DNA of 36,899 nucleotides from Acidobacteriota bacterium (GTDB lineage: Bacteria > Acidobacteriota > Blastocatellia > Pyrinomonadales > Pyrinomonadaceae), in contig JAHEEZ010000002.1 of assembly GCA_024640445.1 (NCBI GenBank), forward strand, positions 1 to 36,899, given 5' to 3'. The notes beneath the pieces were generated by a model. That model saw only the letters and a program-made list of their open reading frames with translations. It made no database searches and was not told the origin of the DNA. Below are positions 7,783 to 23,475 of the stretch, piece after piece. The stretch's first letter is position 1. Each line of letters starts with the position of its first letter. Made by a program: the position numbers and the translations under genes.

Positions 7783-7812
7783 AAAGGCCCGCTTTCGCGG
7801 GCCTTTTCCTTT
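7783..7812. terminator. Bidirectional hairpin terminator between convergent genes
   Basis: AAAGGCCCGC (7783-7792), TTTC loop, GCGGGCCTTT (7797-7806), then TTCCTTT. It abuts the guaB stop codon at 7811-7813. Confidence 0.6.
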
Positions 7813-9280
7813 AACTCTCCAGCCTGTAGTTCGGCGCTTCTTTGGTGATGATCACGTCGTGCACGTGCGATTCCTTGAGGCCGGCGCTTGTGATGCGCAC
7901 GAACTTGGCGTTCTTTTGCATCTCGGCGATGTTCTTGCATCCCGTATAGCCCATTCCCGACCTGAGTCCGCCAACTAGCTGTGTGACCATCTCCTCCAGC
8001 GTGCCTTTGTAAGCGATTCGCGCTTCGATCCCTTCGGGAACGAACTTTGAATCCGACACGTTGCCTTCCTGTGCGTATCGGTCACTTGAGCCCTTCTTCA
8101 TAGCTCCGATCGAACCCATTCCCCGATAAGACTTGAAAGAGCGACCCTGGTAAAGAATTACCTCGCCGGGGGCTTCCTGCGTCCCGGCAAATAGCGATCC
8201 GATCATCACCGAATCCGCACCCGCAGCTATAGCTTTGGTAACATCGCCCGAGAACTTGACGCCGCCATCCGCGATCACCGGAACCCCGGTTCCTTTCGCC
8301 GCATCGACGCATTCGACGATCGCAGTTATCTGGGGCACTCCTGCCCCGGTCACGACTCTAGTCGTACAAATGCTGCCGGGGCCTATTCCCACCTTTATCG
8401 CGTCGACGCCTTCTTTAATAAGCGCCTCAGTCGCTTCGGCCGTTGCTACATTGCCGGCAATCAGCTGAACGTGCGGGTGCTTTTCGCGTACAGAACGGAT
8501 CGCCTGGATCACTCTGGAAGAATGTCCGTGCGCCGTGTCGATCACTATCGCGTCCGATCTCGATTCGATCAAAGCCGACGCGCGTTCTAGATAATCGCCG
8601 GTTGCTCCGATCGCAGCCGCGCACCGGAGCCGTCCCAGCTCGTCCTTTGCCGCGTTAGGATACTTGATCGCTTTCTGAATGTCCTTAACCGTGATCAGGC
8701 CCTTAAGGTACTCATCCTCGTCAACGACCAGGAGCTTCTCGATCTTGTGCTTCTGAAGCTTTACCTTCGCTTGTTCCAAGGTGGTGCCTATCGGGACGGT
8801 CACGAGCGGCTGTGGGGTCATGACTTCAGCCACCGGAATGTCATATCGCGTCTCAAATCTCAGATCGCGGTTCGTAATGATCCCAACCAGAGTCCCGTTC
8901 TCATCGATCACCGGAACTCCGCTGATCTTGTAGCGCTCCATTATTCCAAGCGCTTCCGAAACAACGGCATCGTCGCGTATCGTGACCGGATCGACGATCA
9001 TTCCGGATTCGCTTCTCTTTACCTTGTCTACCTCTTCGGCCTGTTCCCGAATAGACATATTCTTGTGGATCACTCCTATCCCGCCCTGTTGGGCAAGGGC
9101 GATCGCAAGAGCAGCCTCGGTCACAGTGTCCATCGCGGAGGAGCAAAGAGGTATGTTGAGATCAATGTTTCGCGAGAACCTTGTAGTGGTGTCGGTCTCC
9201 GCTGGCAGGACGTCAGAATAGGCAGGCACGAGAAGTACATCGTCAAATGTAAGTCCTTCTCTAATTTTCTCGGTTTCCAT
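7811..9280 (-). CDS. guaB: IMP dehydrogenase
   Basis: Full-length match to the IMPDH pattern: [10 protein letters not shown], an inserted CBS pair, the catalytic loop [11 protein letters not shown], and GGVKFSGD / GSLFAG motifs. Confidence 0.97.
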
Positions 9281-9464: not shown

Positions 9465-10316
9465 CTAGCCCGCGGTGTTGTCACCGCCTTCCGTATTTCC
9501 CGGTGCAGTGTTGCCAACTCCATCTCCTTCAATAGCGATCTTTCCGGACTCGAGTGTCTTCCGGATGTTTTCCTTGTTTATCTCAAAATCAAAACCGTTC
9601 TTGCGCCAGCTTTCCGGCGGAATCGGAGTCTCGATCTTTTGATCGTTCAGGGTTATCTGGACCGTGTCAGCGAGTCCCTTGTAATAACTCACTTTCACGC
9701 TGTCAGTTGCCTCAGTCTCCCACGGATTGCCGGGCTTAACCACGAAGGAACCCAACTTTCCGTCCACGGTCGACTGGATCGAAAGTTCGGCAGCAGAAGT
9801 GCCGATCTTAAGCTTGATTCCGTCAATATTTGGCAGTGGCGACTTCTGAGGTGAAGGCGCCGTCGAGTTTGTCGCTGTCGTTTTTGAGCCGGGCGAATCG
9901 TCCGAGGCAGGCGAGGACGGAGCCGAAAGATAATTGACCAGCAACATCACTCCCCATGCAAGAAGGCCGAGGATTACGACTGAAAAAATGATTGTTGGTA
10001 TCAGTGGAGGCCCGCTTCTATCGTCGGTAAGGACTTCAGGTTTGTATTTAGCGTGCTTCTCATCTTCCGCGGCTTCTTGCAAAGCCGCGATTCTGGCGTA
10101 TGACGCCAAGGCCTCTCCTTCGTCTACGCCCACGTACTTTGCAAACGATTTGATAAAGCCCTTGTTGAATATTCCGCCGGGAAGTGGACCGTAATCGTCA
10201 TTCTCGATCGATTGAAGATACAGCGCTGATATGCGGGTCTGCTCGGCGACCTCGCTGATCGAAATCTCGCGATCCTCCCGAGCCTTCCGCAGCTTTTCCC
10301 CCAAAGATTCAGCCAT
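9465..10316 (-). CDS. rodZ: RodZ-like cytoskeleton/shape protein (HTH domain, single TM, DUF4115-like C-terminus)
   Basis: N-terminal XRE-type HTH LGEKLRKAREDREISISEVAEQTRISALYLQSIENDDY...GFIKSFAKYVG. One TM (PTIIFSVVILGLLAWGVMLLV), a Ser/Pro linker and a beta-rich C-terminal domain. Confidence 0.75.
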   Translation of the reverse strand: MAESLGEKLRKAREDREISISEVAEQTRISALYLQSIENDDYGPLPGGIFNKGFIKSFAKYVGVDEGEALASYARIAALQEAAEDEKHAKYKPEVLTDDRSGPPLIPTIIFSVVILGLLAWGVMLLVNYLSAPSSPASDDSPGSKTTATNSTAPSPQKSPLPNIDGIKLKIGTSAAELSIQSTVDGKLGSFVVKPGNPWETEATDSVKVSYYKGLADTVQITLNDQKIETPIPPESWRKNGFDFEINKENIRKTLESGKIAIEGDGVGNTAPGNTEGGDNTAG

Positions 10317-10464
10317 TTTTACTTGTTCCGGCCCGTGTCTGACGAGCGATCCGACTTCAGCGACAAAGGGGAAATATATCGTTAAAATCGCAATAATGTC
10401 AATTCTTTACAGGAATTTAGGCGTCGGGGATTTGGCTTGATTAATTGCCGAAAGGCGTGTTACG

Positions 10465-10495
10465 TTTACACGATACCCGTTTCTTGTAATAGAAT
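10465..10495 (+). promoter_or_regulatory. Candidate sigma70-like promoter for the BMC-H gene
   Basis: TTTACA (10465-10470), then TAATAG at a 16-nt spacing or TAGAAT at a 19-nt spacing. GAGGA Shine-Dalgarno 8 nt upstream of ATG 10530. Confidence 0.3.
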
Positions 10496-10529
10496 CAGCA
10501 TTCAATCAAAAACAGCGAGGAATTCATAG

Positions 10530-10910
10530 ATGACTCTGGAAGCACTTGGCATGGTCGAAACGAAGGGTTTCGTCGGAGCCGTTGAGGCGGCAGACGCGAT
10601 GGTAAAAGCGGCCAATGTCACGCTTATCGGCAAGGAATACATTGGCGCCGGATATGTCACGATCTTTGTCCGCGGAGATGTCGGAGCGGTGAAAGCGGCG
10701 ACCGATGCCGGAGCCGCAGCGGCGAGGCGGGTAGGAGAGCTAATCTCTGTACACGTGATCCCGAGACCCCACGCGGAGGTGGAAGAGGTGCTTCCCGGAA
10801 AAGCGATCACACAGGGAAAGTCGATCCGAGGCGCGCAGGGCGCGCTGGGTTCCGGCGCTGACTCCCCGGCTGCTACCAAGGCAGCCCAGTCAAAGTCAAA
10901 ATCCAAGTAA
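10530..10910 (+). CDS. Bacterial microcompartment shell protein, BMC-H (PduA/EutM/CcmK type) with a ~37-aa basic low-complexity C-terminal tail
   Basis: Canonical PF00936-type sequence [78 protein letters not shown]. The tail ends in SKSKSK. Confidence 0.9.
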
Positions 10911-10916
10911 TGCCAT

Positions 10917-10970
10917 GCCCGGCCACCGCCTTGCGCATTCGCGCCTGCGAGCGGCGAGCCGGGCTTTTTG
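10917..10970 (+). terminator. Intercistronic terminator/attenuator-like hairpin between the shell gene and the AldDH gene
   Basis: GCCCGGC (10917-10923) pairs with GCCGGGC (10958-10964). An inner CCGC/GCGG stem extends it, and TTTTTGGCCCTTTTGG follows. Confidence 0.45.
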
Positions 10971-10997
10971 GCCCTTTTGGGCCCCTCGACATCATCA

Positions 10998-12716
10998 ATG
11001 ACGGACAAGGACCTGGTTTCGCAGCAAGAAGCAAGAGACGCGGTTGAGGCAGCGCATCTTGCTTTTCTTGAGTTAGCGCGGTTTGACCAGAACAAAATAG
11101 ACGGTATTTGCGAGGCTATGGCGAACGCGGCGCTGGCCGAGGCGGCGCGTCTGGGTCAGGTTGCGTTCGATGAAACGGGCTTCGGAGTTGCGGACGACAA
11201 GAGAGAGAAGAACCGTTTTGCGGCAGAAGACGTCTGGAACTATTTCAAAGGGCTGAAGACGGTCGGCGTGGTCCGGGATAACGGCGACGTGGTTGAGATC
11301 GCCGCACCGAGGGGAGTCGTCGCGGGCATCATCCCATCCACCAACCCAACCTCAACTGCGATCTTCAAGATCATTATTGCTGTAAAATCCAGAAATTCGA
11401 TAGTCCTCTCGCCGCATCCTTCAGCCGCCAACTGCATCGCCGAAACCGCTCGTGTGATGGTTGCCGCCGGAATTGAGGCGGGTTTGCCCAGGGACGCCGT
11501 GCAGTGTCTTGTCTCTTCGACGATCGAAGGCACTGAAACGCTGATGAAGCACAAGCTCACGGCGGTGATCCTTGCGACTGGAGGTATCGGCCTCGTCAGG
11601 GCCGCATATTCCTCGGGCAAGCCGGCATTCGGCGTCGGGCCGGGAAACGTTCCGGTTTACGTCGAAAGTTCTGCCGATCTGGAAAAGGCAGCATCTGACA
11701 TTCTCACGGGAACATGTTTTGACAACGGGACCATTTGCGCGTCTGAGCAGTCGGTCGTCGTCGATTCCTCGGTGGAAAAAGCCCTCCGTGCGGAATTCGA
11801 GGCTCGAGGCGGACATTTCCTGTCACCATCTGAGGCTGACCAGATCGCCAAGGTTCTATTGACCCCCCAGCGGACTCTGAACTCGAAGATAGTGGGGAAA
11901 CCCGCCGTTCATATTGCAGAACTCGCAGGAGTTTCGGTTCCGGCAGGAACACGATGCCTGATCGCGGATTGTGGTGGCGTGGGCCGTGATTTTCCCTGGT
12001 CTATCGAGAAACTTTCGCCCACGCTCGCCTTCTTCGTTGTAGAGGGCGTTGAGGCCGCGTCCGCCAGATGCGAGGAGATACTTCGTTTTGGGGGGATGGG
12101 GCACACTGCGGGAATGCATACCCGGGACCGGGCCGCGGCGATCAGATACGGATCTCGGATGCCCGCGGCGAGGATCGTGATCAATTCGCCGACTACGCAC
12201 GGGGCCATAGGGTTTTCGACCGCGCTGCCGCCTTCGATGACACTCGGGTGTGGCTCTTGGGGCGGTAACGTGACTTCGGACAACGTTTCGCCGCACCACC
12301 TTATGGATATCAAGCGGGTAGCGTTCGAGACCCGGTCGGTTGTCTCTGACAAAGCTGCTGAAAGGAGTTCTTTCCGGACGGACCAGCCAGGCACTCCCGT
12401 GCCGGCGAGAAAAATAGAACGCAGCGAGATCGCGTCGATCGTCGACGAGTTCCTAAGCAGGAAGCTCGCAGAAGCACCGCCGGAACCCGTTGGGGGCCGG
12501 ATGGAGGCGGAATCTTCTAAACAGGCGGTAATACATGAGGTCGCTTCGAAAACAGCGGAAGGTGGATCAAGGAAGAGTCCAGTCGATTTCGTCAGCGAGG
12601 ACGATGTGAAGATCGCGGTTTCCAAAGGCGAAAAGATCTACGTAAACAAGAAGACGATCATAACTCCGGCCGCAAGGGACCTGGGCGGCCAGCATGAGGT
12701 TTTCGCAGAGGTCTGA
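10998..12716 (+). CDS. CoA-acylating aldehyde dehydrogenase (AdhE N-terminal-domain type) with a ~130-aa non-ADH C-terminal extension
   Basis: Blocks shared with the AdhE ALDH half: [53 protein letters not shown] (Cys codon 11736-11738), [21 protein letters not shown] 10998 is preferred; the track start at 10968 is a TTG. Confidence 0.88.
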
Positions 12717-12760: not shown

Positions 12761-13219
12761 ATGTCTCAAACCCCGGCTCATAAACCTGTTTGTTCCGAAT
12801 GCGGTTCCGAAACCCTCGGCCCGGCGCTTTTCTGTTTCCATTGCGGCGCCCGGCTTGGAAGCGATGCGACCGAAACTGAGACGGGAGCGAAAGCGGGGTC
12901 TGATCTGGAGTCCGTAGATATTACCGGGAAGGCGATAGCTCCGCCGCCGGGCGACCCGTTTACAGCTACAGCGGATGTAGGATCCGACTTGGCCGTTGAA
13001 GAAGTGGCATTGCAGGATGAAAATCTTGAACCGAGCATGGATTCGGGCATGGCCACCGCGTCAACGCTGCGAAAGAACCCTGGAGTCATGAGGATGCGCC
13101 GGGTTGAGGTGCGATGGGCGTCAAACGAGGGGTCACCGAACATCTGGTTTATCGTCGCTTCGATCGTGCTTTTCGCACTGGTGTTCGGCGTTTTTCTATT
13201 GTCGATGATCCTCAGGTAG
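12761..13219 (+). CDS. Zinc-ribbon protein with an acidic disordered middle and a C-terminal TM anchor, function unknown
   Basis: CSECGS...CFHCGARL (CxxC-x13-CxxC) at the N-terminus. C-terminal TM IWFIVASIVLFALVFGVFLLSMIL. Strong terminator downstream. Confidence 0.55.
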   Translation: MSQTPAHKPVCSECGSETLGPALFCFHCGARLGSDATETETGAKAGSDLESVDITGKAIAPPPGDPFTATADVGSDLAVEEVALQDENLEPSMDSGMATASTLRKNPGVMRMRRVEVRWASNEGSPNIWFIVASIVLFALVFGVFLLSMILR

Positions 13220-13241
13220 AATCGGGAATCTAATGAAAATG

Positions 13242-13276
13242 AAAGGGCAGACGATCGAATCGTCTGCCCTTTCTTC
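13242..13276. terminator. Bidirectional hairpin terminator between convergent genes
   Basis: GGGCAGACGA (13245-13254), loop TCGAA, TCGTCTGCCC (13260-13269). T-runs follow on both strands. Confidence 0.65.
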
Positions 13277-13292
13277 GTGAAATTCCGATAAA

Positions 13293-14396
13293 TTAACGGT
13301 TTGCAGGTCTCAGGCTTGGTCCGGCATTGTCCTTCTTTGGTACGACAAGACCGGTTCTCGTGATTGCTATCCTCTTTTGTTTGTCAGTTCCTTCCTTCAC
13401 AACAACCTTAATGTTCCTGTAAGCGCCTTCAGGCTTTGTGTCGTCGGGCAAGTAACCGATCGAGTATTGCGTTCGAAGTTCGCTCGCGATGTCCCCTGCG
13501 ATCGTATTCAGCTCAGACAGGTCGTTCGGGAAGTATGACTTTCCGCCCGTCTCTTCAGCCAGTTTTTCAAGAAAGCTCCTCGCGCGTTTTTGAGGACTCT
13601 TTCGGACAAAACCGCCTTCCTTGTCCAGTTCGTTCACAAATCCTACGGTATATATCTGAACATCCGCCTCCCTCAACAGATCGAACAACTGTTCTTCCTT
13701 GTAATAGCTAGCGCGGTCTTCACCGTCAGAAACGAGGATGAGGGCCCTGCGCTTCCTATCTTCGGGAGCCTGGCTTCTCTCGTATTCGTCGACCTTTTCT
13801 GCGGCGAGATACACGGCGTCAATTATCGCCGTCTGCCCGCCTTCGATGTACATGTTGTCCAGCGCGTCGAAAAGTTCGTTCTTGTCCGTCGTAAAATCCT
13901 GAAGGATCTCGATCTTGTTAGAGCTGACAAATCTCACAACGCCTGTCTCATCATCCGGTCTGTTCGTCTCGACGATGATCTTGCTCGCCTCGATCACCTT
14001 TTCAAGCTGAAACCTCAGAGATCCGGAATTGTCTATAACGAGCGCGTAATTTGTAGGGACCTCCGACTGAGAAAAGAAAGATATTGGCTGGGCGCGTCCG
14101 TCCTCGAAAACAGTGAAATCATCCTTGCTAAGATTTGCGATCGGTCGATTGAACCTGTCGACGACCCTAACGTTCAGGTTCACGAGCTCCGTGTCGATAA
14201 TGAGCGGTGAATCGTCTTCCTTCGGAAGAGGAGGCGGGGGAGGCGGTATAAGTGGTCCGTCCGGAGGAGTCGCCGACGGCGATGGAGACCCAGGGGACGT
14301 CTGCGCGCTCACCTTGTCCGGGACCAGAGAGGCGGTCAGGAAAACCAAGGTGGCAAAGGACAGAATAACCAGTGATAGGAAAAAGGATCGTTTCAT
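13293..14396 (-). CDS. Secreted VWA-domain protein (acidobacterial VWFA-related family, TIGR03436-like)
   Basis: Signal peptide MKRSFFLSLVILSFATLVFL, Pro-rich linker, MIDAS motif DNSGS, then TAIIDA and VSDGEDR, and the family-typical C-terminus YSIGY...YRNIKVVV. Start moved to ATG 14396; the longer ORF would overlap the upstream paralog. Confidence 0.8.
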   Translation of the reverse strand: MKRSFFLSLVILSFATLVFLTASLVPDKVSAQTSPGSPSPSATPPDGPLIPPPPPPLPKEDDSPLIIDTELVNLNVRVVDRFNRPIANLSKDDFTVFEDGRAQPISFFSQSEVPTNYALVIDNSGSLRFQLEKVIEASKIIVETNRPDDETGVVRFVSSNKIEILQDFTTDKNELFDALDNMYIEGGQTAIIDAVYLAAEKVDEYERSQAPEDRKRRALILVSDGEDRASYYKEEQLFDLLREADVQIYTVGFVNELDKEGGFVRKSPQKRARSFLEKLAEETGGKSYFPNDLSELNTIAGDIASELRTQYSIGYLPDDTKPEGAYRNIKVVVKEGTDKQKRIAITRTGLVVPKKDNAGPSLRPANR

Positions 14397-14431
14397 TAGT
14401 GCTTTGGCGGTTCCCGAAGGCCGCGTGAATT

Positions 14432-15424
14432 CTAACGGACAGTGATTCGCGGTGTTGCGTAGTAGCCTTCTCGATTGCGGACCGTTAGACGCGGCAATCC
14501 TCTTGGAGGTTTGACCTTCACTTTGACGCGGTGCCATTTTCCATCCGGCTCGAAGCCTTTGGGCGTGTATCCGATCGAATACTGGTGCCTCAGCTCAAGC
14601 GCAATACGCTCGAAGATCTCATCCATTTCGACAGCTGAGGTTGGATAAAAGGACTTTCCGCCCGTGACGCCGGAGAGTTCATCCAGAAAAGCCTGTCCCT
14701 GAAGACCTTCTTGAGAGGAAACGTCGCGACCGTCCATTATTCCTACCGAATAGATCACAACGTCCGATTCCTTCATCAGACGGCGAACTTCCTTGAAATT
14801 GTAACGCGATGCATTGTCCTGACCGTCGCTGATTATCAGAAGCGCCTTCTTCTGATGAGTACCGCGGGTTACCCGCTCAACTCCCAGATAACACGCGTCA
14901 TACAGCGCGGTGTTATTCTTGGGTTCGACGAGGGTGAGTTTGTTCAGCACCGCCTCGCCGTCCCGAGTCCGATCCATCAGAAGCTGGGCCCGTTTGTTGA
15001 AGGCGATCAGATAGTATTCGTCGCGGGGATGGCTGGTGTTTATGAACCTCTCCAGTGCGTTTCTGGCTTTCAAAATCTTTTCTCCGCTCATCGAGCCGGA
15101 GACATCGAACAGGATCCCGATCGAAACAGGCGCGTCATCATCACTAAAAAAGGTGATCTCCTGTTTCTCCTTGTCGTCATATATAGTGAAAGCTTCTTTG
15201 GTAAGTCCGGAGACGTAACGACCGTAATAATCGGTCACAGTCAGGGTTAGGGTCACCAGATCCGTTTCGACTGTGATCTCGGGTTTGTTCTCAACACCCT
15301 GAACAGGGGGCGTTGGAGTGGTTTCCTGGGCCAGGAGCACGGGAGCTGATAAAACGAGGATGAGAAAAATCAGACAAAGCCGAGCATAGGGTTGGCCCCG
15401 GCCTTGAACATTACTAAAAGCCAT
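14432..15424 (-). CDS. Secreted VWA-domain protein (acidobacterial VWFA-related family, TIGR03436-like), tandem paralog
   Basis: Signal peptide LCLIFLILVLSAPVLLAQE, MIDAS DVSGS, then TALYDA and ISDGQDN, and C-terminus YSIGYTP...WHRVKVKVK...REGYYA. Confidence 0.85.
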   Translation of the reverse strand: MAFSNVQGRGQPYARLCLIFLILVLSAPVLLAQETTPTPPVQGVENKPEITVETDLVTLTLTVTDYYGRYVSGLTKEAFTIYDDKEKQEITFFSDDDAPVSIGILFDVSGSMSGEKILKARNALERFINTSHPRDEYYLIAFNKRAQLLMDRTRDGEAVLNKLTLVEPKNNTALYDACYLGVERVTRGTHQKKALLIISDGQDNASRYNFKEVRRLMKESDVVIYSVGIMDGRDVSSQEGLQGQAFLDELSGVTGGKSFYPTSAVEMDEIFERIALELRHQYSIGYTPKGFEPDGKWHRVKVKVKPPRGLPRLTVRNREGYYATPRITVR

Positions 15425-15579
15425 AAAGTCTCCTAACTACCTTGTTCTTCCAAATACTAAGGAACCTTGTAACCTGATGCAAGATAAATCTTACGATGTG
15501 ACCACTTCGGTATGCGTTGTTCGGCCAGGTTTTTTCCTGGCAACACTTGAATCCTGCAACTTTTTGACGACGTTTGGCG

Positions 15580-15588
15580 TGCTATAAT
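15580..15588 (+). promoter_or_regulatory. Extended -10 promoter candidate for the secretion operon
   Basis: TGcTATAAT (TG 15580-15581, TATAAT 15583-15588), about 100 nt upstream of the gspF ATG. No good -35 at a 17-nt spacing. Confidence 0.35.
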
Positions 15589-15686
15589 CCTTTGAACCTC
15601 CGCCTTCCGCCGAGGGACGACCTGTCTCCCTCAATCCTGAAGGTGAAAATGGTTCTGACGCGGGTCCTTTCAATTCCATTATAAAT

Positions 15687-16922
15687 ATGGCCGAATTCAT
15701 TTGTCGTTTGGGTACGCAGTCCGGTGAGGTAGTCACGCGGGTGGTCGAGGCCGCCAGTGACAAGGATGCGCGCACCCAGCTTGAGGAGGAAGGTTTTCGG
15801 GTTTTTCGAATCGCCGCGGCCGGCAGCGGCCTTAGCGCCGTACTGTCCGGACGAAGCGTTTCAAACAAGGGGCGGGTTAAACAGAACGACTTTCTGCTTT
15901 TCAATCAGCAGTTTTCAGCACTTCTTCGAGCAGGCATACCGGTTCTTCAATCGATTGGACTCCTTCAACAACGATCTCCGTCAGGGACACTAAGATTAAT
16001 TCTCGCTGATGTCGAAGAGAAGATCAGAAGCGGCATTCCGCTTTCAGAGGCTTTTGAATCGCAAGGAGTCTTCCCCAAGATATATACGGCTTCGCTCCTC
16101 GCCGGTGAACAGAGCGGGGCCCTCGATGACGTTCTTGCCCGGTATGTTCATTACCTGAGAAGAAGTGTCGCGATCGCGCGCAAATTGAGGGGAGCGCTCG
16201 CCTATCCGCTCTTCCTTATGACGGCCGCTTCGCTGATGGTCGCATTCCTGGTGCTCTACGTGATCCCAAGGATGTCGGAACTGTTCAAAGGACTAAACAC
16301 TTCTCAAAGCCTTCCCACGGTTACTGTTGTCGTCCTCGCCATCTCAACAGCGTTGGCGAAGAACATATGGTGGGTGATCCCGTTGCTGATAGTTTCTGCG
16401 ATCGCCCTTTATTTCTGGCTTCGCACTCCTTCCGGCAGACTGGTTCTGGATAACATTCTGCTGAGATTGCCTCTCGGCGGGACCCTGATAAGGCAGATGG
16501 CAACAGCTCAGCTTGCCCGATCCCTTTCGACTTTGATCTCCGGAGGACTTACGGTACCTGAAAGCTGGGATATCGCGTCACAGGCGATCGGGAACTCGGA
16601 GCTTCGAAGGAGAAGCCAGTCAGTGCTTCCCTTGATACGTGAGGGGCGGATGTTCACTGATGCGCTCGCTCAAGCGAACTGGATGCCGGAACTGGCGCTT
16701 GACATGATCGGGATCGGTGAAGGGTCAGGAAGCCTTCGGGAAATGCTCGATGAGGTGGCGAACTTCTATGACGCGGAATCAGAAGTAAGACTAGAACAGC
16801 TGACGACGCTGCTCGAGCCGGTAATACTGGTGATGATGGCCGGCATTGTTGTGGTAATACTCCTCGCCATCTATTTGCCAATTATTCAAACGATTGCTGC
16901 CGGTCCGTACGGCGCGAGATAG
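15687..16922 (+). CDS. gspF: Type II secretion / type IV pilus platform protein (GspF/PilC family)
   Basis: 411 aa with duplicated T2SSF-type domains and three TM segments. N-terminus MAEFICRLGTQSGEVVTRVVEAASDKDARTQLEEEGFRVFRI is typical of GspF. Confidence 0.9.
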   Translation: MAEFICRLGTQSGEVVTRVVEAASDKDARTQLEEEGFRVFRIAAAGSGLSAVLSGRSVSNKGRVKQNDFLLFNQQFSALLRAGIPVLQSIGLLQQRSPSGTLRLILADVEEKIRSGIPLSEAFESQGVFPKIYTASLLAGEQSGALDDVLARYVHYLRRSVAIARKLRGALAYPLFLMTAASLMVAFLVLYVIPRMSELFKGLNTSQSLPTVTVVVLAISTALAKNIWWVIPLLIVSAIALYFWLRTPSGRLVLDNILLRLPLGGTLIRQMATAQLARSLSTLISGGLTVPESWDIASQAIGNSELRRRSQSVLPLIREGRMFTDALAQANWMPELALDMIGIGEGSGSLREMLDEVANFYDAESEVRLEQLTTLLEPVILVMMAGIVVVILLAIYLPIIQTIAAGPYGAR

Positions 16923-16969
16923 ATCAGGCGAGTCGAACGGATACGGTCCGACGCGCATCAACAAACGAA

Positions 16970-18667
16970 ATGCCAATCGATATGCAAGAGCAGACAAATA
17001 CAAGCGGGCAGCAGGAACCGTCCAATTCCCAATCGGCCGTCGCCGATTTTGTAGAGAACGAGCCGCCCGAGGTTACTGCGGCAAAAAAGATCGCCAAACG
17101 TTACAGGCTGCCCTATATAGACCTTCTGCCTCCGGACAAGGAATCTCCGATCGATTACGAAGAACTTGCCGCGATTCCTGTGGACCTTATGCTCAGGAAT
17201 CAGTTCGTCCCCCTGAAGAGGGAAGGAAGAGGCCTGCACGCGGCGATGGCGGATCCGACAAACCTAGAACGCCTCGACGAGCTTGAGAACGCTTTGAACG
17301 TCAGGATAATTCCTTACGTAGCCACCTCCGGCGCGATCGACGTCGTGCTTAAGAAAGGCGACGCGACTCAGAGAGTTCTTCAGGAAGCTGCCTCCGGGTT
17401 CAGGATCTCGCTGGTTAAGGAGACCGAGCATGGCGAAGAGGTACTCGACCTTGACCGGCTTGCCACGGATTCCGACATGTCGCCCATCATAAAACTGGTC
17501 GACACGATCATTTACAATGCGATGGAATCGAGGGCGTCCGATATTCATATTGAAACCCGAGAGCGCGAGGTCCAGGTGAAGTTCAGGATCGACGGCGCGC
17601 TTTACGCGAAGGTGGACCCGATCGACATCGTCTTCCACCAGACGCTTATCTCGCGCATCAAGGTGATGTCCGAGCTGGACATTGCCGAACGCCGTGTGCC
17701 GCAGGATGGTAGGTTCAGGGTCCACTACAAAGGCCGCACGGTCGATTTCCGTGTTTCGATAATGCCCACGGTTTACGGCGAGGACGCCGTCATTCGTATC
17801 CTCGATAAGGAACAGATATCGGAAGAGTTCAAGAATTTGAGCCTGGACGTTGTCGGTTTCCACCCTGATGATCTGAAGCGGTTCCGTATGTACATAAAGG
17901 AACCGTATGGAATGGTCCTGGTCACTGGGCCGACAGGTTCGGGTAAGACGACAACTTTGTACGGAGCCTTGAACGAGATCAGGAACGAAGAGGACAAGAT
18001 CATCACGATCGAGGACCCGGTCGAGTATCAGCTGCACGGGATCGTCCAGATCCCCGTGAACGAAAAAAAGGGCCTCACGTTTGCCCGCGGACTTCGCTCG
18101 ATCCTGCGACACGACCCCGACAAGATCATGGTCGGTGAGATCCGCGACGAGGAAACGGCCGATATAGCCATTAATTCGGCTCTGACTGGCCACCTGGTAT
18201 TCACGACCGTTCACGCGAACAATGTGATCGACGTTATCGGGCGCTTCCTCAACATGAAGGTTGACCTGCATAACTTCGTGTCATCATTGAACTGCGTGCT
18301 AGCTCAGAGACTTGTCCGGCTTCTCTGCCAGACTTGCAGACGCCAGTACGAACCGCCGATCTCCGAGATTCGCGAATCTGGGCTCAAGCCGGAGGACGTG
18401 CTCGGGAAGACCCTCTTTATGAATGTCGGCTGCGATGCGTGTAACCACACCGGATACAGGGGCAGGACGGCAATTCACGAATTACTTGATATGACCGATC
18501 CGATCCGTGAGATGATCATCGCCCGCCGACCGGGTTCCGAGATCAGGCGGCAAGCGGAACTGGAAGGACTGATCAGCCTGCGCGAATCCGCGCTAAGAAA
18601 GGTATTTTCGGGTGTGACGACGCTTCACGAGATCAACAGGGTCACATTCGTTGAGGATGTTCGTTAA
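16970..18667 (+). CDS. gspE: Type II secretion / type IV pilus assembly ATPase (GspE/PilB family)
   Basis: T2SSE_N-like N-domain, Walker A GPTGSGKTTT, Asp box, Walker B MVGEIRD, His box, and the tetracysteine motif CQTC...CDAC. Confidence 0.93.
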   Translation: MPIDMQEQTNTSGQQEPSNSQSAVADFVENEPPEVTAAKKIAKRYRLPYIDLLPPDKESPIDYEELAAIPVDLMLRNQFVPLKREGRGLHAAMADPTNLERLDELENALNVRIIPYVATSGAIDVVLKKGDATQRVLQEAASGFRISLVKETEHGEEVLDLDRLATDSDMSPIIKLVDTIIYNAMESRASDIHIETREREVQVKFRIDGALYAKVDPIDIVFHQTLISRIKVMSELDIAERRVPQDGRFRVHYKGRTVDFRVSIMPTVYGEDAVIRILDKEQISEEFKNLSLDVVGFHPDDLKRFRMYIKEPYGMVLVTGPTGSGKTTTLYGALNEIRNEEDKIITIEDPVEYQLHGIVQIPVNEKKGLTFARGLRSILRHDPDKIMVGEIRDEETADIAINSALTGHLVFTTVHANNVIDVIGRFLNMKVDLHNFVSSLNCVLAQRLVRLLCQTCRRQYEPPISEIRESGLKPEDVLGKTLFMNVGCDACNHTGYRGRTAIHELLDMTDPIREMIIARRPGSEIRRQAELEGLISLRESALRKVFSGVTTLHEINRVTFVEDVR

Positions 18668-18891
18668 CGGGCGTTTTGGTGTCGCCTTTCCTTGTCGCGG
18701 GAGGAGCCTGAAAGGGCACTGTAAACCAATATGGAATTTGCTTTTTCGGCATATTCACTTCAAAATATGGATTGTTGCGAGCCTTCATTTTCTTTCCGCA
18801 ACTTTTCCAGCACTAATTCGTGTATTTCTCCTATCGATGCCCGGCGGATCAGCGGCCGGGTGCCCGTCAACAGGATTCCCGGAAGATAGCC

Positions 18892-21414
18892 ATGAACAAT
18901 TCGAAACGACTGCGATTTGTAATTACCCTCTCTTTGTTGCTGTGCCTGCTTTCACCTACCGTTGTGTTTTCCATGGGCGAAGGCAAGAAGCATTTCAAAC
19001 AGGGCATGAAACATGAACAAGCTGAGGAATGGGACAAAGCTGTTGAAGAGTTTGCGCTGGCCGTAACGGCGGATCCGAAGAACCCAGAGTACAGGCTTCA
19101 CTTCCGCAGGGCGTTGTTCAATGCTTCGCAGATGTTCATGAAGCGCGGCCGGATGGCGGCGGAAGAGGAAGACTATCTGGGCGCCTACAACGCCTTTAGA
19201 AGAGCTTACAGCTTCGATCCTGTGAACGAACTCGCAAAATCCGAAATGGCCCGGATGCTGAGGCTCCAAAAGGAACTGCTCGGAGTCAACGACGATCAAG
19301 ACAAGGATAAAGCCGATAGCGGGTTCCGCATGGTTCAAACGGGACTTTCCTCCACAAACATTCCTTCGGACGTCGTAATTCCACAGCGGTACGAAAAGCT
19401 TCGAGATCTTCCGTTCCCTTCAGGGATCGATCTTCAGCGGATCGTGCGCGATCTTGCAAATGACCTGGACCTGAACGTACTTTTCGACTCGCAATCCAGG
19501 CTGGACAACAAGAAGGTAAAGATCGAATTAAAGAATGTCACCGCCGCCCAGGCTCTTGACGCCATCTTTCTTCAGGAAGGTCTGTTCTTCGAGAAGGTCG
19601 CCCCACGGACCATCATTGTCGCCACTTCAAACCGGAGACAGTTTTTTCAGCAGCTTGTATTGAAGACCTTCTATCTCGGCAACGCCGACCCCAAGAAAGT
19701 TGCGGCGGTGCTTCAGAAGGCGATTCCCGCGCAGCCGGGGCGAACACCTACCAACGTACTTACGGACGAAGATACAAACAGTATCACCATTCGTGACACG
19801 GCGGAGAACATCAGGCTGATGAGCGATCTGATAGCGGCCCTGGACAAGGATCGCGCCGAAGTGGTGATGGACGTTCAGATCTACGAGGTGTCGAAGAACG
19901 ACCTTCTTGAACTTGGCAATCAAATTGGGAATAGAGCTTCCCTTACAAATATTGGAGGCGCTTTGCCCGGCATCGTTCCGCTAAATGGGGTCCCCGTAAG
20001 CATACCGGACGGTTCGATCGTGAGCACAGCGATAGGTATTGTCCTGAACACACCGTTTACAAGCCTGTCGGCTTTCCAGCAAAGATCAAATACAAAGCTC
20101 CTGGCCTCAACACAGATACACGCATTCAATAACGAGGATTCTTCCGCCAGGATCGGTCAGCGCGTACCGGTCCAAACGGCACAGTTGCCCAACTACTACG
20201 CCCCTACGCCGGAAAATCCGACCAATCCCGGCAATGCTTTTGGAGGCGGCTATCCGGTGATCAATTATGAGCAGGTTGGGCTGACTTTGAAATTCAAACC
20301 GATCGTGTTCCCTAATCAGGACGTTCAGGTAGCTATGGAGATCGAGTCCAAAGAAGTTCTGGACAAAAATACCCTGACCCCTTCCTTCACTGAGCGCACA
20401 ATCAAAGGAACTGCACGCGTACAAAACAACAAGACGCTGCTGCTTGCGAGCGTCGCACAGGGCATCGAGAGCGAAGCCAGGGAAGGAATTCCGTTTCTTG
20501 GACTGATCCCGATCCTCGGGAGACTGTTTACCGTGCCTAAGCAAGACAACCGCCAGGTTGACATTGTAATTGCGATAACGCCGCGAGTTATTCGCGCACC
20601 GGCGATCCTTCCGGAAGATACAATCGAGAGGCCGACCGGAAGCCTCGCGGTCCCGACAAGCGGCTCGCTTGAGGCGCTGGTGGTCAGGGAAGAGATCGAG
20701 CGTCAAAAGACGTTCGCGCGCCGCGAGAAGCGGGACGTAAATGTCCAGCTTCCCGATGCTGATGTGCCGGAGTACGTAAAATCAAATGGCGATGAAGCTC
20801 TTTCGGTGAACGAAGCGGAAAGTTCAAATGCTCCCGAACCCGATGCCTCATCGTCACCTTCTTCGGCTGCGATCGCAACGGGACTCAAGCCGATAGACAC
20901 GGGAATGAAGTCGCTTTCGATCACACCTACATCTTCGGCGCCGGGGAACACGCTTGCCCTGAATCCGGTCTCGCTGCCGAGTTCGGGCATAGAGTCCGAG
21001 ACGGGTGATGCTGAAAATACGCGAATGGCTGAATTGCAGTTTCTTCCCAAGCCGGGAATGTTGCGGGCCGGCGAACGCACAAAGCTCGCGGTGTTGGTCC
21101 GCGGAGCTTCCATTTTCCGCTCGGCGGTGATCGGATTGAAGTTCGATCCGGCTAGAACCACTGTGCGTTCGGTCCAGTTTGGCGATGTTTATGGAAAAGA
21201 GCTTTCGCAAACGTCAGCGGATCCGTTCCTAAATGAAGGCGGCAAGCTTTATGTGTCCTTGATCGCTCCAAACGGTTCCTCGGAAAACAGTTCCGGCGTG
21301 CTTGCTTTCATCGAGATCGAGGCGTTAGCGGACGGCGTTCCGATGATCGAATTTGATCCCGAGATGATCAGCCTCCTGACCGCGTCAGGCGATAGTTTCC
21401 TGGTGAAGTTCTAA
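18892..21414 (+). CDS. gspD: Secretin (GspD/PilQ family) with an N-terminal TPR-like region and a C-terminal cohesin-like domain
   Basis: Signal peptide MNNSKRLRFVITLSLLLCLLSPTVVFS. Secretin core shows NSITIRDTAENIRLMSDLIAALD, VMDVQIYEV, TLLLASV...GIPFLGLIPILGRLF and IVIAITPRVI. Start moved to ATG 18892. Confidence 0.85.
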   Translation: MNNSKRLRFVITLSLLLCLLSPTVVFSMGEGKKHFKQGMKHEQAEEWDKAVEEFALAVTADPKNPEYRLHFRRALFNASQMFMKRGRMAAEEEDYLGAYNAFRRAYSFDPVNELAKSEMARMLRLQKELLGVNDDQDKDKADSGFRMVQTGLSSTNIPSDVVIPQRYEKLRDLPFPSGIDLQRIVRDLANDLDLNVLFDSQSRLDNKKVKIELKNVTAAQALDAIFLQEGLFFEKVAPRTIIVATSNRRQFFQQLVLKTFYLGNADPKKVAAVLQKAIPAQPGRTPTNVLTDEDTNSITIRDTAENIRLMSDLIAALDKDRAEVVMDVQIYEVSKNDLLELGNQIGNRASLTNIGGALPGIVPLNGVPVSIPDGSIVSTAIGIVLNTPFTSLSAFQQRSNTKLLASTQIHAFNNEDSSARIGQRVPVQTAQLPNYYAPTPENPTNPGNAFGGGYPVINYEQVGLTLKFKPIVFPNQDVQVAMEIESKEVLDKNTLTPSFTERTIKGTARVQNNKTLLLASVAQGIESEAREGIPFLGLIPILGRLFTVPKQDNRQVDIVIAITPRVIRAPAILPEDTIERPTGSLAVPTSGSLEALVVREEIERQKTFARREKRDVNVQLPDADVPEYVKSNGDEALSVNEAESSNAPEPDASSSPSSAAIATGLKPIDTGMKSLSITPTSSAPGNTLALNPVSLPSSGIESETGDAENTRMAELQFLPKPGMLRAGERTKLAVLVRGASIFRSAVIGLKFDPARTTVRSVQFGDVYGKELSQTSADPFLNEGGKLYVSLIAPNGSSENSSGVLAFIEIEALADGVPMIEFDPEMISLLTASGDSFLVKF

Positions 21415-21417
21415 GAA

Positions 21418-22077
21418 GTGAATCGGTTACAACGCATTGGAAGGATACGAAGGATTGCGCCGGGGGCGGATAGCGGATACACGCTTCTGGAACTGGTCAT
21501 CACTCTCACAGTTCTTTCAATCATGATCATGGGTACCATCCCTCTCGCGCAGAACGCAGTGAAAAGGCAGAAAGAGATCCGGCTGAGGCAAACGTTGCGC
21601 GATATCAGGAACGCGATCGATGAATTCAAACGCGATACGGTGGGCTCATGTCCTTTGGGTTCAGTAACCAGCGGTAATCCTACGCAGGTAGGACAGAATA
21701 TTCCGGCTGATCCGAGAAGCAGGGTGGTCATCGATGACTGCACGATCTTCGACACGGAGAACATAGACCGCTACCCGCCGAGTCTGGATGCGCTTGTCGA
21801 CGGCGTCAGAGTGAAACCCAGGGGCCTCTCCGCACAAGCGAGGTCCGGCGGCGTTTTCGCCGACAAGAACGCTACGGAGCTGAACGAACAGAAAGAGGTA
21901 CTCAAGGTCTATTTGCGCGAACTGCCGATCGATCCGATGACGGGTGAAGACGACTGGGAATTGAGGTCTTCATATCAGACTAAGGACTCGAGCAGCTGGG
22001 ATGAAGTGAACGTTTTTGACGTCCGCTCAAGAGCGGGCGGTACCGCCTTGAACGGAGAGAAGTACAGTGAGTGGTAA
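21418..22077 (+). CDS. Large prepilin-type (pseudo)pilin with N-terminal cleavage/methylation motif
   Basis: GTG start and 20-aa basic leader, then G|YTLLELVITLTVLSIMIMGTIPL. Cys pair (GSCPLGS...IDDCTIF). The C-terminus GEKYSEW is shared with the next gene. Confidence 0.75.
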   Translation: MNRLQRIGRIRRIAPGADSGYTLLELVITLTVLSIMIMGTIPLAQNAVKRQKEIRLRQTLRDIRNAIDEFKRDTVGSCPLGSVTSGNPTQVGQNIPADPRSRVVIDDCTIFDTENIDRYPPSLDALVDGVRVKPRGLSAQARSGGVFADKNATELNEQKEVLKVYLRELPIDPMTGEDDWELRSSYQTKDSSSWDEVNVFDVRSRAGGTALNGEKYSEW

Positions 22078-22507
22078 AGAGACAAGAGAATACCTGGAGG
22101 CTGGAAGCGTTGGCCGGACACGACCGTTTGGCACAGCCGGTTTCTCGCTGCTTGAGTTGCTTATCGCGATGTTCATACTCGTGATCCTGATTTCCGTTGC
22201 CGTTCCAACCTACCGAAACAGTGTCCAGCACGCCCGCGAAGTCGTTCTCGAGGAGAACCTGTTTCAAATGAGGCGCGCCATAGACCAGTACGCCGCGGAT
22301 AAAGAACGTCTCCCCCAGTCTTTGCAGGATCTGGTCGATTCGAACTATTTTCGCGACATCCCAGTCGATCCGCTAACGGAAAAAGCGGAATGGAACGAGA
22401 TCGTCGGCGAAGATTCAAATTCGGCCGAAGCAGAACAAGGGCTTGTCGATGTCAAGAGTCTTGCCGAGGGCGAAGACAGCAACGGCAAGAAGTACAGCGA
22501 ATATTGA
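22067..22507 (+). CDS. gspG: GspG-like major pseudopilin
   Basis: G|FSLLELLIAMFILVILISVAVPTYRNSVQHARE...LFQMRRAIDQYAADKERLPQSLQDLV...IPVDPLT matches the GspG pattern. GTG start overlaps the previous gene by 11 nt; the leader is unusually long (25 aa), so the start is uncertain. Confidence 0.8.
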   Translation: MSGKETREYLEAGSVGRTRPFGTAGFSLLELLIAMFILVILISVAVPTYRNSVQHAREVVLEENLFQMRRAIDQYAADKERLPQSLQDLVDSNYFRDIPVDPLTEKAEWNEIVGEDSNSAEAEQGLVDVKSLAEGEDSNGKKYSEY

Positions 22508-22539
22508 ACCCCGGGCACTGCCCGCAAGTACCGATACAA

Positions 22540-23475
22540 ATGTTAAGCAGCCTTACCAAACCGAACTATCCGCGCGCAGCGATGGGTTTCGGCCAGAATT
22601 CTGTGACCGCGGTCGCGCTTCAGAAAGACGGACCGGCGTTCTTTTCCGTGAGGCAGGCAGCGACTGTCGAATTGCCCGCCGGGCTGGTAAATCCGAGTTT
22701 TGTGGATGATAACATCAGTGATCAGTTCGAATTGGCGGAGCACCTTGAGCGGGTTTCTCTCGAATGCGGATTGCGCGGGCAGAAGCAATGGTCGGTCTCA
22801 ATGCCGAGCACGACCGCGAGGACGGCAATACTGTCCATCAAAGAAGTGCCGACTTCTAAGAGAGAGCTTGAAGAGGTGCTTGATTTCAAGGCCGAAACCA
22901 GTTTTGGCGTACCGTCTTCAGAACTCAGGATCTCGATGGACAGGATCAGCCCGGATGCCGAAGGCCGGGCACGTTATTTCGCGACGGCGGTGAAGCTGGG
23001 TGTGATAGACGAGTACGAAACAGTATTTGAATCTCTCGGGTGGCGCGCGGGATTGATCCTTCCGAGGGCAGTTTCGGAACTGAACTGGCTTGCCGGATCG
23101 CGATCCGCTGAAGACGCGCTCCTGATCAGTTCCCAGGAAAACGGATTTACCGCGCTCCTGCTCAGGGCCGGAGAGCCCGCCCTTGTGCGATCCGTGATCT
23201 GCAGGGATGAAGAGATCGATGACGAGATATTCAGGCTGCTTGTTTACTACAAAGACAAGTACGAGGAATCTCCTGAGTCAGGATCATCCGGTCGGTTCCT
23301 CGTTATCGGCGAGGGTTCTCTGGATGATAGATTCGCCGGTATATCGGCAGAAGCGCTTGGCAGATCTGTGAGGCTTCTTGCTCCGGCCGATCTGGGCCTC
23401 GCCTTTCCATCTTCCAGCCTCAGATTCAGTGATATCGCCGCTCCGGCGGGGCTTGCAACTCTTGGCTGGCGTTAG
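22540..23475 (+). CDS. PilM/GspL-cytoplasmic-domain-like assembly protein (actin-like fold), soluble
   Basis: Operon position plus PilM-like pattern (GFGQNSVTAVALQKDG...ELEEVLDFKAETSFGVP...VIDEYETVFESLGWRAGLILPRAVSELNWL). No TM segment. Start moved to ATG 22540. Confidence 0.6.
   Translation: MLSSLTKPNYPRAAMGFGQNSVTAVALQKDGPAFFSVRQAATVELPAGLVNPSFVDDNISDQFELAEHLERVSLECGLRGQKQWSVSMPSTTARTAILSIKEVPTSKRELEEVLDFKAETSFGVPSSELRISMDRISPDAEGRARYFATAVKLGVIDEYETVFESLGWRAGLILPRAVSELNWLAGSRSAEDALLISSQENGFTALLLRAGEPALVRSVICRDEEIDDEIFRLLVYYKDKYEESPESGSSGRFLVIGEGSLDDRFAGISAEALGRSVRLLAPADLGLAFPSSSLRFSDIAAPAGLATLGWR

Follow-up and report, generated by a model that had tools for sequence, protein, structure and literature searches.

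The window, i.e., the whole stretch of DNA analyzed here (36,899 nt, or 37 kb), originates from Blastocatellia/Pyrinomonadaceae (Acidobacteria subdivision 4) and contains two adjacent genes that encode a microcompartment shell protein of the BMC-H type and a CoA-acylating aldehyde dehydrogenase (AldDH). The gene pair and its surroundings comprise the following features.

7811-9280, minus strand: guaB, flanking gene
9465-10316, minus strand: RodZ-like gene with an HTH_25 domain, flanking gene
10317-10529, no strand assigned: non-coding region of 213 nt that separates the divergently oriented RodZ-like HTH_25 (minus) and BMC-H (plus) genes
10530-10910, plus strand: BMC-H hexamer shell protein, 126 aa, PF00936
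10917-10969, plus strand: stem-loop (10917-10964) followed by TTTTT (10965-10969), between the BMC-H and AldDH genes
10998-12716, plus strand: CoA-acylating AldDH, EutE/AdhE-like, 572 aa, PF00171, core residues 1-445
12420-12476, plus strand: predicted encapsulation peptide (EP), AldDH residues 475-493, an amphipathic helix between two variable linkers
12579-12713, plus strand: conserved C-terminal domain of about 45 aa after the EP, AldDH residues 528-572
12761-13219, plus strand: Zn-ribbon protein, 152 aa, with a transmembrane helix at its C-terminus; same orientation as the AldDH gene and 44 nt 3' of it
13293-15424, minus strand: two VWA genes, flanking genes

A first-pass annotation had given the coordinates and gene content of the pair (BMC-H at 10530-10910, AldDH ending at 12716) and its flanks, a RodZ-like gene and guaB on one side and Zn-ribbon and VWA genes on the other, and all of these were confirmed. 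Its statement that other microcompartment genes are missing from the 37 kb is borne out by Pfam and tblastn. Among 28 of the main ORFs of the window, Pfam identified no BMC genes other than the pair, and queries with EutN, CcmL, PduN, and PduL yielded zero tblastn matches in all six frames. When proteins from real main loci of the acidobacterial microcompartment type ACI (the aldolase, three BMC-P proteins, the small Cys protein, and the 2-hydroxyacid dehydrogenase) and a satellite-type BMC-P were used as tblastn queries against the window, the sole match was its one BMC-H. Thus, neither PF03319 nor PF00596 genes were found in the 37-kb window by Pfam or by tblastn with the ACI proteins, and no PduL/Pta phosphotransacylase or alcohol dehydrogenase was found beside the AldDH in the window (Pfam; tblastn for PduL).

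The shell protein is a canonical one. The PF00936 profile spans it end to end (positions 1-75 of 75, E 4e-29); residues 1-90 are a canonical BMC domain, in which the edge lysine (D-x-x-x-K) and the IPRPH motif are both present, and residues 91-126 form a low-complexity A/S/G/K tail. The motif is the standard PRPH, not PRPF. The closest solved structures are HO BMC-H and PduA, with residues 1-92 aligned, including AADAMVKAA and VIPRPH. Identity to PduA is approximately 73%, and the BMC-H encoded in one ACI main locus is 81% identical.

The ATG of the BMC-H gene at 10530 is preceded by the ribosome-binding site GAGGAA, and the divergent region 10317-10529 is likely to be the promoter region of a BMC-H/AldDH operon. 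Sigma-70-like hexamer pairs occur in this region on the plus strand (10360-10388, 9/12) and on the minus strand (10402-10373, 11/12). Because the number of such pairs is at the level expected from shuffled sequences, they are weak, and the promoter scan was rejected as evidence. Between the two genes, the segment 10905-11000 folds with an MFE of -41.3 kcal/mol (z -2.4 vs. shuffles). Stable hairpins are also present in most orthologous BMC-H/AldDH spacers, the sequences of which are not conserved. The structure at 10917-10969 may act as a partial terminator or an mRNA-stabilizing hairpin that sets the shell-to-enzyme ratio.

The longest ORF of the AldDH begins with TTG at 10968, but the gene callers and 15 aligned orthologs favor the ATG at 10998, which yields a protein of 572 aa and a spacer of 87 nt between BMC-H and AldDH. 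Among solved structures, the AldDH is most similar to acetylating acetaldehyde dehydrogenase 5j78 (E 3e-145), the Listeria EutE-like protein 3k9d, and the N-terminal domains of AdhE. Residues 2-448 align with residues 26-473 of 5j78, the GTICASEQ block is conserved, and the core is about 50% identical as judged by eye. The catalytic Cys247 (11736-11738) and the surrounding block are invariant across the 15 aligned orthologs. More than 120 full-length orthologs with 69-84% identity carry the names Aridibacter, Pyrinomonadaceae, or Acidobacteriota, and a relative of the AldDH is encoded in at least 429 GTDB species genomes.

Downstream of the core, the motif R.EIAAIVD.FLS.KLAE.P is conserved in the 15 orthologs between hypervariable linkers, and AF2 places a low-confidence helix at residues 475-491. 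Residues 475-493 are predicted to be an encapsulation peptide, matching the 'EP close to the C-terminus' described by Sutter et al. The C-terminal domain that follows, residues 528-572, has the invariant columns F, V, E, D, V, T-I-x-T-P-x-A-x-D-x-G, and F, and is modeled by AF2 as beta-alpha-beta-alpha-beta with pLDDT of about 80. A possible lead is that the adenosyltransferase of EUT2 loci begins with such a module. It matched no Pfam family (E up to 10), no sequence relative in a PDB profile search, and no PDB structure below E 0.1 in Foldseek. A full-length AF2 model of the AldDH built with 15 close orthologs was discarded (mean pLDDT 48).

Comparison with the aldehyde dehydrogenases EutE and PduP of the EUT and PDU metabolosomes reveals both common and distinct features. 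All have the PF00171 fold, a GTICASEQ block that contains the catalytic Cys, and shell targeting by an amphipathic helix, which here is predicted. However, the targeting peptide of EutE and PduP is N-terminal, whereas that of the window AldDH lies near the C-terminus and is accompanied by an extra domain. Moreover, EutE and PduP are encoded in the main locus beside a phosphotransacylase and an alcohol dehydrogenase, neither of which is near the window AldDH. The similarity of this AldDH to the PduP structures (5jfl) is far lower (E 5e-46). The window does not contain the canonical metabolosome core, in which a signature enzyme, an AldDH, a phosphotransacylase, and an alcohol dehydrogenase are encoded together.

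The position of the pair is strongly conserved. The BMC-H gene lies immediately 5' of the AldDH gene in all of the 73 related species genomes, and the conserved order is guaB, RodZ-like, BMC-H, AldDH, (Zn-ribbon), VWA, VWA, T2SS-F. The 80 syntenic loci come from Aridibacter, Pyrinomonadaceae, Blastocatellia, or Acidobacteriota MAGs; within 10 kb on either side, no PF03319 or PF00596 genes were found in these 80 relatives, except for a satellite-type BMC-P in two of them. A second BMC-H gene is present downstream in 52 of 61 relatives, and some relatives have a fuller satellite consisting of BMC-H, AldDH, BMC-P, ACT, DUF711, and BMC-H, so that the satellite occurs in graded forms of between six and two genes. 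The reduced form, without the second BMC-H and BMC-P, is shared with the nearest relatives (L008, L009, L012, L017, L020, L029, and L064) and with CP065003.1 (GCA_016700175.1), where the satellite lies at 1.40-1.42 Mb. Further complete chromosomes with the satellite are OZ244151.1, OY970352.1, OY970060.1, and CAVTYF010000001.1. To judge from these sequences, the second BMC-H and BMC-P were lost in the lineage of the window.

Such losses, which also include ACT and DUF711, could mean that the ACI system is decaying, and that the pair is a remnant without organelle function whose AldDH is a cytosolic enzyme. We consider this highly improbable, because the pair is under purifying selection. Both ORFs are intact. 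Between the window and CP065003.1, pN in the BMC domain is 0.03 vs. pS of 0.59, and pN is 0.31 in the BMC-H tail, 0.11 in the AldDH core, 0.19 in the EP, and 0.15 in the C-terminal domain, compared to 0.50-0.53 in the linkers flanking the EP (pS range 0.59-0.78). Purifying selection therefore acts on the BMC domain, the EP, and the C-terminal domain, and encapsulation probably still matters in the lineage of the window. Furthermore, the reduced form recurs in at least seven species-level genomes, among which synonymous divergence is saturated, and thus is old and stable.

Main loci of the ACI type were recovered elsewhere. Satellite-type BMC-P was tried as a route to a main locus and rejected: all 120 matches listed belong to one satellite clade, and the loci looked up are extended satellites. 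A search with acidobacterial BMC-P via representatives yielded one EUT2 locus of Firmicutes type, which was set aside, and three true ACI main loci. Three of the main loci (L095-L097) are on high-GC contigs, and three others (L099, L100, and L104) have the same GC content as the window (0.538 for L099). Homologs of the L099 aldolase bear Pyrinomonadaceae names, and L100 is within assembly GCA_030840675.1, where its aldolase is labeled Pyrinomonadaceae by NCBI. L099, L100, and L104 occupy a conserved chromosomal site between ruvA and LemA/mraZ. A main locus is situated at 0.97-0.98 Mb of the 5.71-Mb contig ERZ25039516:contig_1096, and ERZ25039588:contig_12863 is a further main-locus contig. The recovered main loci encode a BMC-H together with three BMC-P, an aldolase bearing its targeting peptide at the C-terminus, and a small Cys-motif protein bearing one at the N-terminus. 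No PduL/Pta phosphotransacylase or alcohol dehydrogenase was found in the recovered ACI main loci, and neither is among the ACI main-locus components in the catalog of Sutter et al. (2021; PMC8217296). In some cases, a main locus is adjoined by a gene for the Rex regulator. Thus, a complete BMC locus elsewhere, which the first-pass annotation had named as a test, was found at the level of the family, on other Pyrinomonadaceae contigs; main loci and satellites were seen on separate genome records, and their link is a family-level one.

ACI was reported only in Acidobacteria, mainly in subdivisions 4 and 6 (Sutter et al., 2021, PMC8217296). According to the catalog, the ACI AldDH is consistently encoded in a satellite of the main locus (PMC8217296) and has an EP near the C-terminus followed by an unknown domain of about 50 aa (PMC8217296, Supplementary Data 2). 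A BMC-H is occasionally found 'with an AldDh', a fourth BMC-P is occasionally found with the AldDH, and an ACI/MIC3 ACT model is listed (PMC8217296). In the catalog, the BMC-H clade that goes with the AldDH is H_fuchsia/H_royalpurple, and the ACI AldDH groups with MIC3 AldDHs; the window proteins would be expected to fall into H_fuchsia and the ACI/MIC3 AldDH branch. The gene pair in the window shares with this satellite (PMC8217296) a subdivision 4 acidobacterial host, an AldDH encoded apart from the vertex proteins and carrying a near-C-terminal targeting peptide and then the domain of about 50 aa, and an adjacent BMC-H with the standard motif; the occasional fourth BMC-P and ACT gene occur within satellites of the window's relatives. 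In contrast, the window lacks the second BMC-H, BMC-P, ACT, and DUF711, and the adjacent BMC-H, 'occasional' in the catalog, is invariable in the 73 Blastocatellia genomes considered here; nothing essential differs. Hence, with a probability of about 0.88, the pair is an ACI satellite locus reduced to BMC-H and AldDH alone. Of the loci examined here, only 'Blastocatellia AA13, ACI (main)' was found in the catalog supplements, and a limited search of post-2021 literature on ACI yielded nothing beyond the catalog.

Other catalogued types could in principle have satellites of this kind. SPU3 and PDU1D loci are known from some Acidobacteria, and FRAG types are scattered shell genes with nearby AldDHs (PMC8217296). 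However, SPU3 AldDHs have N-terminal targeting peptides, the near-C-terminal peptide combined with a domain of about 50 aa is found in the catalog's ACI entry (PMC8217296), and the sole main loci recovered from the same family are of the ACI type. Assignment to a non-ACI type, such as SPU3, PDU1D, or a FRAG type, is the least probable of the readings considered.

The first-pass annotation had left two alternatives, a satellite of a shell encoded elsewhere and a minimal system outside the described types. The evidence favors the former, and the latter is unsupported, because the module matches the published ACI satellite feature by feature. BMC-H proteins alone can assemble into sheets and tubes. 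A self-sufficient compartment or scaffold would consist of pentamer-less shells, tubes, or sheets of BMC-H, to which the AldDH is recruited by its targeting peptide, with no main locus involved. Such an arrangement agrees with the purifying selection on the pair, with the failure to find BMC-P, BMC-T, or other cargo genes in the 37 kb, and with the nearest relatives also being without the second BMC-H and the BMC-P of fuller satellites. It is nevertheless very unlikely. The pair, including its targeting peptide and domain, recurs throughout the family, in which main loci of the ACI type with three BMC-P are common at a conserved site, and the catalog consistently assigns the ACI AldDH to a satellite that accompanies a main locus (PMC8217296). 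In addition, the AldDH would be left without an aldehyde source or a cofactor recycling partner in the module. Equally unlikely is a variant in which the main locus has been lost or is never used in an Aridibacter-like sublineage, the pair is a self-contained pentamer-less shell or scaffold, and the C-terminal domain of about 45 aa serves as a second shell-docking or oligomerizing module. The locus is thus most probably of an already known, ordinary type and not a new minimal organelle, since it corresponds to a catalogued ACI satellite, with vertex proteins and aldolase presumably encoded elsewhere in the genome.

As an ACI satellite, the pair would be transcribed from the divergent promoter region beside the RodZ-like gene. 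BMC-H would join the facets of a shell whose remaining parts come from a separate main locus, which we infer to be present in the window's own genome. That locus would contribute three BMC-P vertex proteins along with a second BMC-H, a class II aldolase whose targeting peptide is C-terminal, a small Cys-rich protein whose targeting peptide is N-terminal, and, in many cases, a 2-hydroxyacid dehydrogenase. The AldDH would be drawn by its amphipathic helix (residues 475-493) into the shell, where the enzyme would convert the aldehyde released by the aldolase to acyl-CoA, using NAD+ and CoA and acting via Cys247. A similar combination is known from PVM/GRM5, where a class II aldolase (PF00596) that bears a targeting peptide and an acylating AldDH likewise are a likely pair of aldehyde producer and consumer. 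Unlike ACI, PVM/GRM5 encodes a phosphotransacylase and an alcohol dehydrogenase and keeps the AldDH in the main locus; instead, ACI has the 2-hydroxyacid dehydrogenase and small metal-binding proteins.

Shell genes that are obligately separated from the main locus and occupy a conserved chromosomal site are also represented by CcmK3/CcmK4 of the beta-carboxysome and by satellite loci of HO type I. The separate placing of satellite shell genes probably allows their separate regulation. Those satellites usually contain shell genes only, or BMC-P and aldolase, whereas the one in the window includes a core enzyme, the AldDH.

The discovery value of the locus is small, because the locus type, the odd architecture of its AldDH, and its location apart from the main locus are already described in the 2021 catalog. 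It is a well-documented instance, in which the Blastocatellia satellite and main locus are both assigned to fixed chromosomal sites, between guaB/RodZ-like and VWA/T2SS for the former and from ruvA to LemA/mraZ for the latter. The ACI organelle is very widespread among soil Acidobacteria; the AldDH is encoded in at least 429 species genomes. As leads, the C-terminal domain, the intercistronic hairpin, and the Rex regulator by some main loci may be of more use than the module.

The Zn-ribbon gene at 12761-13219 may be a member of the same operon, and its tie to the microcompartment is uncertain. The Zn_Ribbon_1 match (E 2e-4) is under the Pfam cut-off, and in 41 of 61 related loci the gene after the AldDH encodes a protein of weak similarity (21-47% identity). 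Beyond the Zn-ribbon gene, at 13241-13273, lies a strong inverted repeat that was scored as a minus-strand terminator.

The two-gene module belongs to a locus type already described in the literature, the satellite locus of the Acidobacteria-type microcompartment (ACI). This type was defined in the BMC catalog (Sutter et al., 2021, PMC8217296) and is described there as restricted to Acidobacteria, chiefly subdivisions 4 and 6. According to the catalog, a fourth BMC-P is at times found alongside the AldDH, another BMC-H occurs occasionally "with an AldDh", and among the catalog HMMs is an ACT model named after ACI/MIC3; a carbohydrate-derived substrate was suggested by analogy with PVM and GRM5 (PMC8217296). 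No later papers on ACI were found in the literature searched. The window module shows the tested features that define the ACI satellite and would work alike. The first-pass annotation had offered two readings, a satellite with its shell encoded elsewhere and a minimal system of an undescribed type. The evidence favours the former; it does not support the latter, since the features match the catalogued ACI satellite.

Features of the window discussed in the text
10530-10910 (+), BMC-H shell protein gene
10800-10907, low-complexity tail of the BMC-H
10917-10969, intercistronic stem-loop followed by TTTTT
10998-12716 (+), CoA-acylating AldDH gene
12579-12713, C-terminal domain of the AldDH
12761-13219, Zn-ribbon protein gene
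13293-23475, VWA genes and secretion-type cluster

The initial identification of a BMC-H gene followed by an acylating AldDH was confirmed. The 126-aa BMC-H matches the full PF00936 profile (Pfam, E 4e-29) and aligns with the solved proteins HO BMC-H, PduA, and EutM, including the AADAMVKAA edge-lysine segment and VIPRPH. Residues 91-126 form a 36-residue A/S/G/K tail ending in SKSKSK, the length of which differs between orthologues. The longest mechanical ORF of the AldDH begins at TTG 10968; public-assembly gene calls and 15 aligned orthologues place the start at ATG 10998, so that the protein has 572 aa and the spacer 87 nt. Among solved structures, residues 2-448 match the acetylating acetaldehyde dehydrogenase 5j78 best (E 3e-145), followed by the Listeria EutE-like 3k9d and AdhE N-domains, with PduP structures far more distant.

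In the alignment of 15 orthologues, the active-site block with Cys247 is invariant, and the core is conserved up to approximately residue 445. Then follow a hypervariable linker, a conserved amphipathic segment (residues 475-493, R.EIAAIVD.FLS.KLAE.P) that is the predicted targeting peptide, a second hypervariable linker containing a small VIHE motif, and a conserved block of about 45 aa (residues 528-572) with a final F. This tail architecture is the one given in the catalog for the ACI satellite AldDH. Even a poor full-length AF2 model predicts a helix at residues 475-491, and a separate AF2 model of the last 62 residues gives a beta-alpha-beta-alpha-beta unit (pLDDT ~80). This unit matched no Pfam family and no PDB sequence, and Foldseek against PDB gave nothing below E 0.1. 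Compared with EutE and PduP, the window AldDH has its targeting peptide at a different position and its gene lies apart from the main locus. Compared with CcmK3/4-type satellites, the window satellite carries a core enzyme.

An HMM of the C-terminal domain, run against six-frame ORFs of all fetched loci, gave one weak match outside the AldDH family (15 bits, E 0.02). It covers the unannotated N-terminal 46 residues (VITEADVRRLF...KEFVIPHHQIITPSAR) of a Cob_adeno_trans (PduO/EutT-like) protein in a Firmicutes-type EUT2 locus (L093 7664-7810). The domain may be a recurrent small module associated with microcompartments.

The AldDH has more than 120 full-length relatives at 69-84% identity, the named ones being from Aridibacter, Pyrinomonadaceae, or Acidobacteriota. 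With one genome scanned per GTDB species, at least 429 genomes encode a relative. The best 80 of these are nearly all Blastocatellia, Pyrinomonadaceae, Aridibacter, Chloracidobacterium, or unclassified Acidobacteriota MAGs, with one Acidisarcina label; judged by these sequence relatives, the host group of the window is Acidobacteria subdivision 4. The complete 4.49-Mb MAG CP065003.1 and QQVQ01000002.1 share the whole gene order of the window (relA ... guaB, HTH_25, BMC-H, AldDH, small protein, VWA, VWA, T2SS F/E/secretin). Conservation of the pair in relatives was borne out over the 80 best-matching species genomes: a BMC-H lies immediately 5' of the AldDH in all 73 loci with enough upstream DNA. 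On the 3' side, a second BMC-H (57-70% identical) was found in 52 of 61 loci, a BMC-P immediately adjacent in two, and a Zn-ribbon-like protein, weakly similar to that of the window (21-47% identity), in 41.

Through this BMC-P clade, a fuller satellite was observed in related Pyrinomonadaceae (L019 9513-15932; L088 7644-13208; L091 4190-10754), with the order BMC-H, AldDH, BMC-P, ACT, (x), DUF711, BMC-H. Its BMC-P of ~109 aa has a C-terminal extension and is accompanied by an ACT-domain protein, a small protein, and DUF711/UPF0210. By the catalog rule (one BMC-H plus one BMC-P), the fuller satellite would formally count as a main locus. The nearest relatives (L008, L009, L012, L017, L020, L029, L064) share the reduced two-gene form of the window. 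In the lineage of the window, everything 3' of the AldDH has been lost except the Zn-ribbon protein.

The claim that the 37-kb window contains no other BMC genes also held. Apart from the pair, Pfam analysis of 28 of its main ORFs yielded only housekeeping and envelope genes: ABC-F, Rrf2, an ABC exporter, a phosphoesterase, DUF6526, guaB, an HTH_25 RodZ-like gene, a Zn-ribbon, two VWA, T2SS/T4P F, E, secretin, pseudopilins, an ECF sigma/anti-sigma pair, an outer-membrane barrel, frr, pyrH, tsf, and rpsB. No further BMC gene was detected by tblastn in six frames, either with sequences of EutN, CcmL, PduN, and PduL or with proteins from actual ACI main loci plus a BMC-P of the satellite type. 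That the pair is a self-sufficient minimal system is nevertheless unlikely, with odds of about one in twenty in our judgment.

Candidate main loci were sought by passing from the satellite BMC-P through 50%-identity representatives to other BMC-P clades. Loci fetched from three clades all fit the ACI main-locus description. L095/L096 (GC 0.69) encode a small zf-FCS membrane protein, a 286-aa aldolase ending in ...GEIRLTYRELTALIEDAVRHLRS, a BMC-H (81% identical to that of the window in L095), three BMC-P, a 2-hydroxyacid dehydrogenase, and an 88-aa protein that has an EP-like helix at its N-terminus and a Cys/His motif at its C-terminus. L097 (GC 0.66) is similar, without the dehydrogenase. L099, on a 1.08-Mb contig with GC equal to that of the window (0.538), contains rex and genes for a BMC-H, three BMC-P, an aldolase whose sequence ends in ...SLTREELVELLAQAVDSKS, and a 146-aa protein that begins with a helix and bears a Cys motif at its C-terminus. 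The L099 aldolase has at least 120 relatives at ≥83% identity, the named ones from Pyrinomonadaceae; two of them, on JAVEEA010000044.1 (GCA_030840675.1) and a 5.71-Mb contig, belong to loci of matching make-up and position. The site reads ruvB, ruvA / (rex) aldolase, BMC-H, BMC-P x3, small protein / LemA, TPM, Zip, mraZ.

Main loci at the ruvA-LemA/TPM/Zip/mraZ site, Pyrinomonadaceae-type contigs
L099, 8008-11441; preceded by a redox-sensing Rex-like repressor, split between two ORFs
L100, 8001-10962
L104, 4792-9130; Rex-like repressor intact

Unlike the high-GC L095/L096, these three loci have no adjacent 2-hydroxyacid dehydrogenase. On this evidence, ACI main loci are common in the family of the window's relatives and occupy a conserved chromosomal position of their own. 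No genome record with both loci was seen among the AldDH, satellite BMC-P, and aldolase matches listed, and ENA sample ids differ between satellite and main-locus contigs. From the catalog and the family-level co-occurrence, we infer a main locus in the window's organism. Attachment to a BMC of another type than ACI is the least probable alternative. Logan run SRR29483052 contains an extended satellite (AldDH plus BMC-P; L090) together with a main-locus-type BMC-P contig (L098). Since L098 belongs with the high-GC L097 lineage by its match, the two probably come from different organisms.

Selection was estimated against CP065003.1, also a reduced form, with similar figures for QQVQ01. pN was 0.03 in the BMC domain, 0.11 in the AldDH core, 0.19 in the targeting peptide, and 0.15 in the C-terminal domain, vs 0.50-0.53 in the two linkers and 0.31 in the fast-evolving BMC-H tail; synonymous sites were close to saturation (pS 0.59-0.78). 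The low pN indicates that the shell domain, targeting helix, and terminal domain are maintained, which at the sequence level argues for continued encapsulation and against a decaying remnant, an explanation slightly less probable than self-sufficiency.

In the working proposed here, most of which we infer, transcription of both genes probably starts in the 213-nt divergent region that they share with the RodZ-like gene, where promoter-like hexamers are no commoner than in shuffles. The satellite BMC-H would co-assemble with main-locus BMC-H and BMC-P proteins, and the AldDH would enter the shell by its helix and convert the aldehyde of the encapsulated aldolase into acyl-CoA. The intercistronic stem-loop (-41 kcal/mol, z -2.4) with its U5 run would fit a shell transcript in excess of the enzyme transcript, and is possibly an attenuator or stabiliser setting this ratio. 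Most orthologous spacers (70+ genomes) form stable hairpins; their sequences are not conserved.

The Zn-ribbon protein, encoded 44 nt past the AldDH, has a C-terminal transmembrane helix. It is followed by two tandem VWA genes and a type II secretion/type IV pilus-like cluster (F, E with an MshEN domain, secretin, and two N-methyl pseudopilins). Nearly all relatives keep this order next to the satellite; the cluster seems an ordinary one.
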